Shown: positions 32,412-44,525 of the stretch, piece by piece
How positions within the stretch are numbered: the first letter of the stretch is position 1
How the letters are laid out: every line of letters starts with the position of its first letter
Made by a program: the position numbers and the translations under genes
The notes under the pieces: generated by a model
Told to the model about the DNA's origin: nothing
The model's database searches: none
The model's input: the letters and a program-made list of their open reading frames with translations, nothing else
NCBI GenBank assembly: GCA_958428295.1
Contig: CAUAFL010000001.1
Location: 37,153 to 101,152 of the forward strand
DNA length: 64,000 bases
Direction of reading: 5' to 3'
Source: an uncultured Bacillota bacterium
Lineage (GTDB): Bacteria > Bacillota_I > Bacilli_A > RF39 > UBA660

Positions 32412-32794
32412 GGGGATGTTTTGGTTTCGACAGGAATAGTAGAGCATAAATGGCAAGCCGTGTTGTTTACGTTACAAACAAACTTAAATATAACTGGAAA
32501 CAGTATTAAAACAGCACTTTCTAATTTATTTGGTGGAAACCAAGAATTAGCTATGGCCTAGTTTAGACAAGGTGCACTGTTACATTCGGATTTCCTATGT
32601 TCGTTTGTGATGGTTAATTTTAATAGGATATAATTATCTGATGATTTTAGGATAATTGAACTGAAAAATCTAGAATAGTCATTTGGTTGGTAATTCTCTG
32701 AAGACTATTTGAAACCTATAAGAATTACCTAAGCTTGTAGAAGTTTATGTAGCTCTATTTTTGGACAGGAGTTCGATTCTCCTCATCTCCACCA
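32412..32794 (+). ncRNA. ssrA: transfer-messenger RNA (tmRNA, SsrA)
   Basis: 5' GGGGAUGUUUUGGUUUCGACAGG and 3' GGACAGGAGUUCGAUUCUCCUCAUCUCCACCA form a tRNA-Ala-like acceptor stem with a G3:U70 pair and a T-arm. The region CTTAAATATAACTGG upstream of the tag ORF is conserved with B. subtilis ssrA. A TGcTATAAT extended -10 lies at about 32389-32399. Confidence 0.9.
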
Positions 32795-32830
32795 GTAAGC
32801 AATCTGTCCAGACTTTTATAGTTTAGGGCT
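32771..32830 (+). repeat. copy A of the island-array direct repeat (functional tmRNA 3' end plus ~35-nt flank ...aatctgtccagacttttatagttt)
   Basis: Degenerate copies of this segment recur at 38907, 41387, 43342 and possibly 44491. Confidence 0.6.
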
Positions 32831-32903
32831 TAAATATATAAGTATCAATTTCAAATAAGAAGTTGGTACTTTTTAATTGTTTAAGCAAAGGAGGACAGAT
32901 GAA

Positions 32904-33179
32904 ATGGTAACTATTACAAAGAAAGAATTAGAAATTGATAATGAATTAAAGAACAAAATAGAATTTATATGTAGTTTTTGTAATATTACTCCAACAATTA
33001 TCAATGGTAATATTAGAAAAATTAATAAGATAAATTTAAACTACATAGAACCTCATAGGGTTATTATTAAAGGCATCACATTTCTAGTATTTAATTATTC
33101 TAATGAAATCTTTATTGAGAATTTATCTAATAGAATTAAATTATCAGATTTAGAAACCTTTATTAAGCAATTAAACTAA
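32904..33179 (+). CDS. small island-encoded protein (~91 aa, single CxxC); paralog of 41530-41805
   Basis: ATG at 32904 follows an AAGGAGGA RBS; the ORF track starts at 32877. It shares the KNKIEFICSFC...YIEPHR.IIKGITFL.FNY...IENLSN core with the 41530 ORF. Confidence 0.55.
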   Translation: MVTITKKELEIDNELKNKIEFICSFCNITPTIINGNIRKINKINLNYIEPHRVIIKGITFLVFNYSNEIFIENLSNRIKLSDLETFIKQLN

Positions 33180-33350
33180 ATATAAGTTTTGTACCAACTT
33201 TTTCTAAAATTGTCTTAAAATAGACAAAAAATGGTAAATATGTCTTGATTTTACAATAAAAGAATCTATAATAGGAAAGCAATAAAGAAGTTTTATGTTT
33301 TGTGGGGTTAATATAAAACAAATTAATAAGCAACATATTGGAATTTATGA

Positions 33351-33395
33351 GAGGTGCAAGACATAAAACCTAATGTCTTGCACCTCTTTTTTTAT
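33351..33395 (+). terminator. strong rho-independent terminator (14-bp perfect stem)
   Basis: gaggtgcaagacat-aaaaccta-atgtcttgcacctc followed by T9. The ORF-track start of the recombinase (33373) falls inside this hairpin, so the real start is downstream. Confidence 0.75.
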
Positions 33396-33423
33396 ATATA
33401 AAGATAGAAAGGATTTGAAGTTT

Positions 33424-42188: not shown

Positions 42189-43277
42189 ATGAAGATAATT
42201 AATCCAAAAGTTGGAAATATAGAAGAAATAATACAACCTATAGATGACCTAATAATTTTAGGATTATCACGAATAGCTTTTAAATGTAATAAAGAGACAG
42301 AATCTTATAATTTAAGAGATGAATTATATGCATCTAAGTATAAGCCAACTGGGTTAGAAGGAAAAGAAATAGAATTAGAAAAATTTTTACAGCAACAAAT
42401 CGGTGAAAACTTGAGAATTAAAAATCAAAATAAAGAGTATAAATGGGTGATTATTAATGAAAAAAATATAGGAGAAACCAGTCATAGGTTTTATATTGCT
42501 CCGAAACCGGAAAATATGCACGAAATTGTTTTTGAGCTTGTTAAACAGTTCGTTTCACAAAACATTCCAGTTAAATTTAAATATCAATTGACCAGTGGAA
42601 TGGGACAATGCGACAGAATGATTATTTATAGTGATTTTGATAACAAAGACAGAATTGAATCTCAAATAAAAAAAGTTTATCAACAAAATCAAAATTTATT
42701 TAGCGGATGTGAAAGATCATTAGCTTGGTTATATACAACAAGTGTTCCTGATGTGTATCTTGCACCAGAAACACCAAGTGAAGCATATAGTAATAGGTTA
42801 ACAGAAGTTATAATGACAGCTAAAAATACTTTTAATTTTCTTTATGGTATTACTAATAGTAATCAAAAAATTACTTTGGCAGGGAAAAATGCAGAAAAAG
42901 CATTAGAGTATATGAAAATGTTAATAGGCTCTTTGATGTTAAGAAAAGGAATACTGTTGTCAAAAGATGGAAAATGTATAACTATTAAAGATAAAAATGT
43001 TAAAACTTCATATGATTTTAATTCAGGAATATTAGAAAATTTTAATATGGATTCTCGTGGGTTTTATTCAGTAAAATTTTTCCCAACTGATGAAGGAAGA
43101 AATGCACTTTTAGATAATTTTTATAGTGTATCATCAATAAGCGAGCAACCTGGATTAGAAATAAAGTATTTAACACCTGAACAAAGAAAAGAGGAACTTG
43201 ATAGAATTTTTTATCCATATAAGTATATTAATCAACAAACTTCAACGCAAACAATCGATAATAGCCCAAAAAGATAA
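42189..43277 (+). CDS. hypothetical protein, 362 aa (possible nucleotidyltransferase-like motif S-G-x11-D-F-D)
   Basis: Good RBS (AAAGGGATG). No confident family assignment. The segment KFKYQLTSGMGQCDRMIIYSDFD fits the hG[GS]-x9-13-Dh[DE] pattern of polymerase-beta-fold nucleotidyltransferases. Confidence 0.45.
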   Translation: MKIINPKVGNIEEIIQPIDDLIILGLSRIAFKCNKETESYNLRDELYASKYKPTGLEGKEIELEKFLQQQIGENLRIKNQNKEYKWVIINEKNIGETSHRFYIAPKPENMHEIVFELVKQFVSQNIPVKFKYQLTSGMGQCDRMIIYSDFDNKDRIESQIKKVYQQNQNLFSGCERSLAWLYTTSVPDVYLAPETPSEAYSNRLTEVIMTAKNTFNFLYGITNSNQKITLAGKNAEKALEYMKMLIGSLMLRKGILLSKDGKCITIKDKNVKTSYDFNSGILENFNMDSRGFYSVKFFPTDEGRNALLDNFYSVSSISEQPGLEIKYLTPEQRKEELDRIFYPYKYINQQTSTQTIDNSPKR

Positions 43278-43341
43278 TTATAATTTTAGAAAATAATGGT
43301 ATAATTTAGTTAGTGACTGATTTAAACATTAATTACCTTTG

Positions 43342-43420
43342 GTAAAAAGTTGTAGATTACTCCTCATCACCACTATTGGGAAATCTGTTCGAAAAGCATG
43401 AACTTTTGATAAATAATCAA
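43342..43420 (+). repeat. copy C of the degenerate tmRNA 3'-end repeat (…gttgtagattactcctcatcaccact attgggaaatctgttcgaaaagcatgaacttttgataaat)
   Basis: It keeps the tcctcatc(a)cca(ct) acceptor-proximal segment and the aatctgYYcgaa flank. Confidence 0.5.
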
Positions 43421-43525
43421 TTAGAAATAATTGATTCAGACTGTTGACAAAGTGGTATATTCAGAAAGAATATATCGTTTTTTGTATGATAGTATGGTAT
43501 AGTAATTATGTTTAGGAGGTTATTT

Positions 43526-44404
43526 ATGGGTGTGAAGGTTGATGGTTATATTGATTTATTAAATAGATATGCTTTATATGGAGATAATGGTTATTATGTA
43601 GATCCACAAATGATACATAGAATGGTTGTTGATGAATTAAAACTATCAATGTCTTTTGAAAGTATTGAAGTGTTTGTAGAAACTTGCAAAATTACTTTAA
43701 CAGAAGAGGAAATAGAAAATTTTTTAGATAAAGTAATGGATGAGGAGAAACCAACTTTAAAAGAACAATTGAACCAACCTTATAAACCAAATTCCAAAAA
43801 TATTTTAGAGTGTACAAAAGAAGATATTCATAAAGCTGCTAGCGCATTTGGAACTGAAATTTTGAAAAGTCGTTATGTATTTGAACCATATTCGTTGCAG
43901 TATTTTAAAAAATATACCTCTATTTTAAAAGAAAAGTGTGGAACACTTCTTGAAATATTGAATGATTTGATTAAGATTAAAGATGATACTATCCAAGAAG
44001 AGGAGTGGGATCGTATTATTGATTTAGATTTCCATATAAATGAATTTGGTGATGTTTATTTTAGTGACATTGAACGTTTAACCAATGCTATTATTTATAA
44101 TGTTTCTGATTTGTATGATAAAGTTGCTAAAGGAAATAGTGTACAAACCTATTTAACATGTAAAGTTTCTAAGGATAGTATAGCGCGAGCGGGAATCTTT
44201 GAAAGTGAGATTTATCCGAGCAAAGAAGTACAAATAAAAGATTTATATTATAGTTACCGATATGAATTTATTGCATTAAGTAATAGTCAGAAGGAAACTT
44301 TAAAAAAAGAACAATTAGGTAATTTTTCTAGGATGCTTGAGCAAGATTTATTTGATGATTATGCATCACCTTCTATTCCTATGTTAGTCAAAACGAATAG
44401 ATAA
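43526..44404 (+). CDS. hypothetical protein, ~293 aa
   Basis: ATG at 43526 follows an AGGAGG RBS; the ORF track starts at 43508. No recognisable domain. One R-x6-H is the only HEPN-like feature, which is weak. Confidence 0.45.
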   Translation: MGVKVDGYIDLLNRYALYGDNGYYVDPQMIHRMVVDELKLSMSFESIEVFVETCKITLTEEEIENFLDKVMDEEKPTLKEQLNQPYKPNSKNILECTKEDIHKAASAFGTEILKSRYVFEPYSLQYFKKYTSILKEKCGTLLEILNDLIKIKDDTIQEEEWDRIIDLDFHINEFGDVYFSDIERLTNAIIYNVSDLYDKVAKGNSVQTYLTCKVSKDSIARAGIFESEIYPSKEVQIKDLYYSYRYEFIALSNSQKETLKKEQLGNFSRMLEQDLFDDYASPSIPMLVKTNR

Positions 44405-44490
44405 AGTAGAAGAAAAAGTGTCTAAGTAGTCAATAAATAATGTAGAAAATTGTTGGGTACTTAATTAAAATATCTGTGAAAGTGATCTTA

Positions 44491-44525
44491 AAATTGTAGA
44501 TGAGCATCGAGTTAATTTTTGACTA
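44491..44525 (+). repeat. possible remnant of the tmRNA segment upstream of the T-arm (aattgtagatgagcatcgagttaatttttgac)
   Basis: It resembles tmRNA 32738-32772 (gcttgtagaagtttatgtagctctatttttggac). It lies in a 440-bp noncoding AT-rich stretch. Confidence 0.3.

Follow-up and report, generated by a model that had tools for sequence, protein, structure and literature searches.

What kind of DNA has accumulated behind the transfer-messenger RNA (tmRNA) gene of an uncultured Bacillota bacterium, and by what route did it arrive? The question is raised by a 64,000-nucleotide stretch (the window) of contig CAUAFL010000001.1 (assembly GCA_958428295.1, positions 37,153 to 101,152, forward strand; GTDB lineage RF39; UBA660), in which the intact ssrA gene is followed by a block with a G+C content of 0.23-0.28 from ~33.0 to 44.5 kb, against 0.33-0.36 across most of the surrounding window. 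A first-pass annotation had read this block as the product of successive integrations, by elements of one family, at the 3' end of ssrA, each leaving a decayed copy of the tmRNA terminus (copies A to D). In the best explanation that we can offer, to which we give a probability of about 0.85, the 11.7-kb low-G+C block consists of four integrative mobilizable elements of one family, arranged head to tail; elements of this family are driven by a large serine recombinase (LSR) and target tRNA and tmRNA 3' ends. What stands of the earlier proposal is the low-G+C head-to-tail array, with one complete element (E1) and three decayed ones (E2, E3 and E4, relics without a recombinase); what does not stand is that the repeats are decayed attachment (att) copies of the tmRNA terminus, the true direct repeat being about 5 nt (C-N-CCA). 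The idea of tandem integration is right in outline, while the anatomy of the att sites and the class of the enzyme differ from those first described.

Repeats and the complete element behind ssrA

The position of the tmRNA end, 32794, is agreed by ARAGORN and Rfam; the acceptor 3' strand and its ACCA stop there (terminus ...CATCTCCACCA), and the tag peptide is GGNQELAMA. Repeats A, B and C exist: in pairwise dinucleotide shuffles the 100 nt upstream of the CCA end gave z = 8.0 for A-B and z = 10.8 for B-C, and dinucleotide shuffles of the 30-nt cores gave z = 10.2 for A-B, 7.4 for B-C and 6.7 for the tmRNA against copy C. They are, however, parts of longer units (Table 1), which are direct repeats at 71-79% identity. 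A right-end profile built from 23 right ends (22 at other loci and copy B itself, whose own score is true by construction, B being a member) retrieved copy A at E = 6e-7 and copy C at E = 8e-9 from the whole window, and nothing beyond A, B and C. Copy C had been ended at 43374; its true end is 43375 (CCACTA), just ahead of ttgggaAATCTG. The shared flank downstream of the repeats is also real, with z = 13.3 for the tmRNA flank against that of B, 3.5 for A-B and 3.7 for B-C. Copy D, placed at 44491-44525, gave z <= 2 against each of the tmRNA, A, B and C and had no profile match, and we no longer count it as a repeat.

The identity of the repeats had to be revised. A and B have only CACCA in common with the tmRNA end, and the last 65 nt of the tmRNA align to the island with a score of 26, within a null of 22.9 ± 2.5 (maximum 31) from Markov-simulated sequence under strict scoring. 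Since the tmRNA 3' end does not match the island above chance, the reading of the repeats as copies of that end was dropped; the T-arm deletion described for some of them was a misreading, since only the last ~17 nt of copy C resemble the tmRNA end. Judged from sequence comparison, A, B and C are the conserved right arms, ~100 nt each, of mobile elements. They are assigned to the elements themselves because the core of copy A recurs, nearly unchanged, at the right ends of relatives elsewhere (L098:16288, L106:11037, L108:11897 and L109:5346), of which that in L098 begins behind tRNA-Thr. Right arms of the family end in GC-N-CCA, and the "homologous flank" corresponds to the left arm with which the next element begins; this arm starts straight after CCA and contains a terminator.

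E1 contains all parts in family order: left arm, small open reading frame (ORF), recombinase, relaxase, cargo and right arm. Over about 4 kb, E1 aligns at 83-87% nucleotide identity with the family members L098, L106, L107 and L108. Its recombinase, the sole one of the island, has the Pfam Resolvase catalytic domain on residues 27-172, matches the TP901-1 integrase catalytic domain at 6e-20 and phrog_95 integrase at 1e-104, and by its length of 597 aa and the phrog_95 match fits the LSR family. DUF4368 was not detected in it with Pfam, and no Phage_integrase domain, the mark of a tyrosine integrase, was found with Pfam among the island ORFs scanned. In plasmid and phage collections the best relative is at most 36% identical over half the length, so the recombinase has no annotated close relative there. 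The relaxase matches NCBIfam MobV at 8.8e-8, under the cut-off. The gene content is that of an integrative mobilizable element, with its own integrase and relaxase, a GNAT acetyltransferase, a nitroreductase and small unannotated ORFs, and no type IV secretion; no origin of transfer (oriT) was found in it.

The element family and its proposed crossover site

The family was defined by 80 metagenome-contig loci whose recombinases are 60-91% identical to that of the window. Among these loci, 57 left arms directly follow the CCA that a tRNA or tmRNA gene encodes, in one orientation throughout, and the targets comprise 12 tRNA isoacceptor species, Arg(cct), Cys, Thr(ggt/cgt/tgt), Leu(tag/gag/caa), Phe, Gly(tcc/gcc) and His, as well as tmRNA. 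The left arm has the form NNNNNN-AATCTG-YYCGAAC, then a hairpin, then a T-run, and the recombinase start usually lies 590-740 nt past CCA (514 nt in one locus). Elements of 3.8-11.2 kb share a backbone of small ORF (74/80 loci), recombinase (80/80) and Mob relaxase (65/80), around which the cargo varies. A 10,485-bp element is found at 99.9-100% identity behind tRNA-Thr(ggt), behind tRNA-Thr(tgt) and within an array, an 8,050-bp element at two other sites is 98.9% identical, and a Cys-Gly tRNA spacer is seen both occupied and uninterrupted; the family is taken to be mobile because copies at 99.9-100% identity sit at different tRNA genes. Comparison of loci shows that members of the family insert with single-base precision behind the 3' end of tmRNA and of many tRNA genes, leaving the gene unchanged. 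The same comparison shows that repeated insertion at one gene is frequent and yields arrays: a right arm is followed directly by a left arm at 25 internal junctions in 20 loci, and tandems occur in 23 of the 80 loci.

Three loci (L129:1777-5791, L104:995-9324 and L157:2468-9263) have a short relic or another element between the tRNA or tmRNA gene and the recombinase-bearing element, from which it follows that the newest element is not always next to the RNA gene. In another, L097, a recombinase 88% identical to that of the window lies behind tRNA-Cys (U73) with a ttggga-type left arm; its 87-89% relatives (L096 and L098-L105) lie behind A73 tRNAs with a gtaggc-type arm, and close recombinases may exchange arms and target class.

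The crossover position was placed by comparing the two ends of each element, with positions counted back from the CCA end. In each of the 35 elements for which both ends were available, the discriminator (-4) at the left junction matches that in the right arm (A in 20, T in 12 and C in 3), -5 is always C, and -6 and positions further upstream differ between an element's two ends. G occupies -6 in all 43 unique right-arm cores other than copy C, whereas at that position targets carry G, C or A. Reconstruction of the E1 attP gives a dyad, CTTACTCG-C|A-CCAGTAAG, with its axis between -5 and -4, and the dyad has undergone compensatory change (CTTACT/AGTAAG against CCTACT/AGTAGG in the 87% group). 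The match at -4 and the attP dyad together place the crossover at tRNA positions 72-73, so that only C-N-CCA is duplicated, and we infer from the alignments that the crossover dinucleotide is position 72 plus the discriminator (CA here, CT or CC elsewhere). The separation of A73, U73 and C73 lineages would follow from this scheme. Two other placements were rejected: a crossover after CCA does not account for the 35/35 discriminator match, and one at (-6,-5) is excluded because at Phe, Cys, Arg and tmRNA the target and the core do not have the same base at -6.

The outer parts of the half-sites point to a shared motif. GTTC stands at -24 in 44 of 44 tRNA ends, GTT at -28 in 29 of 43 right arms, and TCGAAC at +14 in 34 of 45 left arms, which reads GTTCGA on the opposite strand. 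The T-loop-like motif thus lies ~23 bp from the centre in both attP arms, compared with ~19.5 bp in the tRNA. In LSR att sites the outer motif is 4-5 bp nearer the centre in attB, and a matched central dinucleotide is required (PMC11722253); the spacing in this family corresponds to that offset, known for the motif of DNA-binding domain 2 (DBD2) of serine integrases. By comparison, short att sites, dyad symmetry, a matched 2-bp crossover and the attB offset would all be those of an LSR. The enzyme would recognise GTTCRA, the universal T-loop sequence of tRNA genes, as the outer motif in the left half-site of attB, and both attP arms would carry that motif ~4 bp further out. Native sequences to the right of CCA are diverse among the loci, so the right half of attB seems unconstrained, which would explain both the targeting of many tRNAs and the re-use of occupied sites.

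In the left arms, AATCTG-YYCGAAC also forms the 5' arm of a second hairpin (32806-32829 in the window, and in family left arms), whose partners covary (TCCAGAC/AGTTTAGGG, CTCGAAC/GTTTCGAG, TTGAAC/GTTCAA). These partners put a T-loop-like motif on both strands of the left arm.

Arms, relics and gene content

The arms also carry transcription signals. A hairpin followed by T5 was found in 62 of 64 family left arms, and an outward-facing extended -10 (TGnTAnnWT) lies 72-86 nt from CCA in 40 of 56 right arms. The left arm of E1 reads gtaagc-AATCTG-TCCAGAC, followed by a hairpin and then by a terminator hairpin with a T-run at 32840-32871 (terminator scan), and it folds at z = -5.0. Copy A has a -10-like TATAAT at 38864-38869 and the terminus ...AGCGAAAAAAGTTTGAAATAACTTTCTTACTCGCACCA, and is short of ~10 nt of a 5' hairpin kept in L108 and L109. 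A promoter scan of the island gave promoter-like counts equal to those of shuffles, so single-site promoter calls in the window have no weight alone. The left-arm terminator would keep transcription of the tRNA out of the element and the right-arm promoter would restore transcription of the DNA downstream; more speculatively, with the terminator facing inward and the promoter outward, an insertion into a tRNA operon would be non-polar.

The ~72-nt stretch past the right-arm promoter tends toward a 5' hairpin and an outer stem around a T-like hairpin, with NCCA left free. Right arms have a mean fold z of -2.4 when read forward, compared with -1.5 for the reverse complement, and a helix anchored at -5 averages 3.98 bp compared with 2.68 ± 0.14 in shuffles, with compensatory pair types. 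It is possible, though not established, that the right arm is transcribed as a small functional RNA with a minihelix like an acceptor and T-arm. The 5' hairpin of the putative outward transcript and the terminator hairpin of the element's own left arm share sequence (L156:18102-18186 with L156:9374-9450; 32840-32871 in the window), and the shared sequences covary by lineage (ATATCAATTTCTAA, ATCAACTTCTAAT, ACTAATAAATATCA, AACTAATC); the longest complement between right-arm and left-arm hairpins averages 10.2 nt in own pairs and 8.5 in cross pairs. The shared hairpin could be a protein operator, or could allow an antiterminator pairing that is possible only with the arms joined.

We lean, if only a little, toward a broader account of these features, in which the universal 3' end of tRNA and tmRNA genes became, in the course of evolution, the attB of an LSR clade of gut Bacilli, with the T-loop motif, the C72-N73 crossover, a design that does no harm at such sites, and arrays that arise through the one constrained half-site. 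The discriminator base would then set which tRNAs a lineage can enter; the terminator would face the tRNA and the promoter outward, and the right arm may give a minihelix RNA ending in NCCA. With one half-site constrained, occupied sites would remain targetable and arrays would build up.

The relics behind E1 differ in what they retain. The left arm of E2 has decayed (38942-39009, aatttattcgaattattcgaat, with a hairpin and T8) and resembles the family subtype AATCTGTTCGAACTATTCGAAC. That of E3 (X3) reads gagaag-AATCTG-CTCGAAC, with a hairpin and T-run at 41468-41498. Copy C, at the right end of E3, is atypical: it has an extended -10, TGgTATAAT, at 43297-43305, and its distal part is family-like (AAAAAGTTGTAGA), but a resemblance to the tmRNA end is seen in the final ~17 nt, TTACTCCTCATCACCACTA, where -6 is C and the CCA is mutated. 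The left arm of E4 (X4) reads ttggga-AATCTG-TTCGAA, followed by an 8-nt insertion and a hairpin at 43415-43436 without a T-run; a homologue of the E4 protein p298 (38% identity) is cargo in the family loci L122 and L125. The 362-aa protein of E3 has a weak Pfam match to Gad1 (Gabija anti-defence 1; E = 0.002, 18 bits, under cut-off) and to no other family. Within E1, the 91-aa ORF had no match in Pfam, NCBIfam or PHROG and belongs to the family backbone, with a putative role as regulator or directionality factor. The hairpin ahead of the recombinase is GC-rich, lies between the small ORF and the start at 33424, and overlaps a longer ORF call from 33373; as a terminator or attenuator, it could control expression of the recombinase.

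Table 1. Features of ssrA and the array behind it (window coordinates)
Feature	Coordinates	Strand	Basis or remark
ssrA (tmRNA) gene, intact	32412-32794	+	ARAGORN; Rfam RF00023 149.9 bits, full length
Inferred crossover dinucleotide, C72-A73 of tmRNA (attL centre)	32790-32791	+	-4 match, dyad axis
E1, complete integrative mobilizable element, 6,147 bp	32795-38941	+	All parts in family order
E1 left arm (X1; P' half of attP)	32795-32875	+	Family consensus tTggg.AATCTGttCgAACTtTT
E1 small conserved ORF, 91 aa	32904-33179	+	tblastn: 74/80 family loci
16-bp hairpin and T-run immediately upstream of recombinase start codon	33349-33388	+	Terminator scan
E1 large serine recombinase, 597 aa	33424-35217	+	Pfam Resolvase 1.7e-32, Recombinase 8.8e-16
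E1 MobV/Mob_Pre relaxase, 450 aa	35455-36807	+	Pfam Mob_Pre 5e-16
E1 cargo	36867-38821	+	Pfam; not common to other family members
GNAT acetyltransferase (E1 cargo)	36867-37370	+	Pfam
Nitroreductase (E1 cargo)	37372-37938	+	Pfam
Two unannotated ORFs (E1 cargo)	38012-38272, 38279-38821	+	
Copy A, E1 right arm (P half of attP; attR-type junction with E2)	38849-38941	+	Profile E = 6e-7
E2, 2.5-kb relic, no recombinase	38942-41420	+	Right arm is copy B
Flavodoxin/4Fe-4S protein (E2)	39121-39879	-	
XRE regulator (E2)	40343-40627		
Broken lipoprotein gene (E2)	40712-41242	-	
Copy B, E2 right arm	41318-41420	+	TATAAT ends 41351; unit ends ...AAAAAGTTGTAGATAACTTTCTCAACCGCACCA
E3, 2.0-kb relic	41421-43375	+	Right arm is copy C
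Small-ORF paralog (E3)	41530-41805		65% identical to the 91-aa ORF of E1
362-aa protein (E3)	42189-43277		
Copy C, E3 right arm, atypical	43278-43375	+	Profile E = 8e-9
E4, relic	43376 to ~44430	+	Left arm X4
298-aa protein p298 (E4)	43508-44404		

Upstream of ssrA are an RNase R gene, a PGA_cap gene and smpB, and beyond the island core-level G+C is regained at ~44.5-45 kb and core genes resume, the first being a polysaccharide deacetylase gene at 44845. ARAGORN calls only the tmRNA and a tRNA-Thr in the whole window. The latter, tRNA-Thr(cgt) at 51344-51419, ends ...GGTTCAAATCCTTTAGTCGGCACCA and has its own terminator hairpin directly after (flank to 51450); it looks like an unoccupied A73-type target of the element family in the same genome, and tRNA-Thr(cgt) is used as a target by the family in L099, L131, L136 and L164. 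A 53-aa ORF at 32400-32561 runs through the tmRNA tag frame, and public gene calls for this species list its protein (e.g. L002 8475-8636); the call almost certainly arises as an artefact of ssrA.

Competing explanations and known systems

Other explanations of the repeats were weighed. Chance similarity in AT-rich DNA is negligible as an account of the locus as a whole: it would fit the last 65 nt of the tmRNA, which do no better against the island than against Markov-simulated sequence, and the promoter-like count, which is not above shuffles, and it is accepted for copy D, a chance match; for A, B and C it is refuted by shuffle tests at z = 7-13 and by the profile E values. Classical accretion at a tRNA-type gene, in which incoming islands displace resident tmRNA 3' segments and A to D are the decayed termini, is highly improbable and for the most part refuted. 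Tandem islands with partial gene copies at tRNA and tmRNA genes are known (tycheposons; PMC5704250), and the last ~17 nt of copy C match the tmRNA end at 14 of 16 positions, but C is only partly tmRNA-like, its distal half being a family right arm, and A and B share no more than CACCA. Such accretion is further opposed by the absence of a tyrosine integrase from the island, by the core of copy A, which ends related elements behind other tRNA genes or in arrays elsewhere, by the G at -6 in 43 right-arm cores whatever the base of the target, and by the loss of D as a repeat. Local segmental duplication, by slippage or unequal crossing-over, of a module of right arm, left arm and small ORF within one island would suit the duplicated small ORF (65% identity) and the direct repeats at 71-79% identity; it is nonetheless very unlikely, since the units are as divergent as independent family lineages, the left-arm subtypes are each found separately elsewhere, cargo differs from segment to segment, arrays of unrelated members are common (23/80 loci), and near-identical elements sit at different tRNAs.

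It is also unlikely, though the arms offer something in its favour, that the units serve first of all as small tRNA-like RNA genes, each with a promoter, a 5' hairpin, a minihelix-NCCA and a terminator, and lie at element ends only secondarily. The conserved extended -10, 72-86 nt upstream in 40 of 56 right arms, the strand-biased fold, the helix with compensatory changes that leaves NCCA unpaired and the terminator in the next left arm would all fit such a gene. They do not conflict with an att role, and GC-N-CCA and GTT behave as features of a recombinase half-site, through the covariation of the discriminator and the dyad symmetry with the left arm. RNAalifold on a MAFFT alignment of 38 right arms gave no consensus structure, a search of 38700-44800 with Rfam, even at E <= 10, gave no tRNA, tmRNA or other credible match, and the acceptor-like helix is absent from the whole Gly/His clade.

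These three results, with the degraded state of the right-arm copies in the window, whose fold is no better than that of shuffles, weigh also against the RNA component of our own interpretation, and several further points weigh against the array of LSR-driven elements. Zn_ribbon_recom scored 7.6e-4 in the recombinase (20.3 bits, under the 25.3 Pfam cut-off). The placement of the crossover rests on covariation and symmetry among lineages that are not all independent, and the GTT motifs put the dyad axis half a base off that of the proximal palindrome. Copy C, with its tmRNA-like proximal half, is a hybrid that a 72/73 crossover could not produce. The right-end profile found no right arm for E4, which makes the distal boundary of the array approximate, and interposed relics in some family arrays leave the order of arrival ambiguous. 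Presence/absence variation, on which the first-pass annotation had staked its idea, was not seen: contigs from three further samples, which together span most of the array, are 99.9-100% identical, and every public contig of the species has the same array at that identity. Neither a circular junction nor an empty ssrA site was found in these contigs, and GTDB relatives at most 68% identical by SmpB have no synteny downstream.

The contigs were sought through exact proteins (SmpB, the deacetylase, p298, small ORF 2 and the flavodoxin gene), and a gene identical to the E1 recombinase is present on contig L092. The best SmpB match among GTDB genomes is 78% identical, on a contig that ends ~110 nt past smpB; the next best deacetylase homologue is 59% identical, and ssrA is not adjacent. 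The collections searched hold no closely related genome, and in place of strain variation it is the element family at other loci that validates the att-like boundaries. In copy B, public contigs of two samples have a common break point (41376-41401, with a 26-nt overlap), one ends exactly at the inferred ssrA crossover dinucleotide (32791), and others start at 44429 or end at 44567 (Logan contigs L001, L007, L008, L089, L092 and L093). As excision junctions these breaks were rejected, 41376/41401 not fitting a junction at the CCA end; they may be branch points of the assembly graph.

Among known systems, E1 resembles the clostridial mobilizable transposons Tn4451 and Tn4453 (LSR TnpX, MobV relaxase TnpZ) in its size of ~6 kb, single LSR, MobV-type relaxase and cargo, and Tn4451-type elements have very short flanking repeats and a crossover at a dinucleotide (PMC5704250). 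The window's recombinase and TnpX are only distant relatives (N-terminal domain, E = 2.4e-4), and whereas Tn4451 has low target specificity, all 57 mapped insertions of the present family are at tRNA or tmRNA CCA ends, with an inferred C-N crossover (CA, CT or CC at 72-73). Tn4451 uses GA ends, and its circle joint forms a promoter for tnpX; the outward promoter of the family described here, in contrast, meets the left-arm terminator. The staphylococcal cassette chromosome (SCC) elements SCCmec and ACME are inserted by the LSR Ccr at the 3' end of rlmH/orfX, without inactivating the gene, and SCC composites form tandem arrays with short repeats between members and relics without recombinases. 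The SCC target is one protein gene, compared with a class of RNA genes here, and to our knowledge SCC elements are without a relaxase. Our recombinase is not a Ccr, with 85-94 bits against the NCBIfam models for CcrA, CcrB and CcrC and cut-offs of 700-900. Islands with tyrosine integrases (Islander-type islands, tycheposons, and the accretion of cis-mobilizable and of integrative and conjugative elements) are like the array in their tRNA and tmRNA hotspots, intact target, arrays and remnants. They carry a copy of 15-40+ nt of the gene 3' end, and each integrase clade has one sublocation; in the family described here, unlike those islands, only C-N-CCA is shared, many tRNA species are used, and the enzyme is a serine recombinase.

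A 2017 review states that mobilizable elements with serine recombinases typically insert within genes, disrupting them (PMC5704250), and a 2020 survey, with 14 candidates of 297, stated that no serine integrase had been reported to use a t(m)RNA gene and that such use needed proof (PMC7192596). An LSR gene is present in 27 of 937 Prochlorococcus tycheposons and cryptic elements. The "multi-targeting" LSRs of Durrant et al. 2022 are like this family in that close recombinases use many loci with a shared target motif, but targets are defined there by protein-gene clusters, and the word tRNA is absent. In the Durrant et al. 2022 clade, 63% of LSRs have DUF4368, and one example has an AT-rich target motif; here DUF4368 was not detected in the window's recombinase, and the motif is the T-arm, acceptor and CCA end of tRNA genes. 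Our literature searches found no description of this element family.

Integration at tRNA and tmRNA genes has been taken as a hallmark of tyrosine integrases. The present family is a set of serine-recombinase elements that use the 3' ends of at least 12 tRNA isoacceptors and of tmRNA non-disruptively, with base-precise junctions, and that offer a testable rule, a crossover at 72-73 with the T-loop as the DBD2 motif. Island finders that seek long repeats of tRNA fragments will miss such elements. For recombinase engineering, a natural LSR with many copies of its target in every genome and a specificity class that a single base determines makes an attractive scaffold. For the gut mobilome, elements of this family are a source of variable cargo in uncultured Bacilli.

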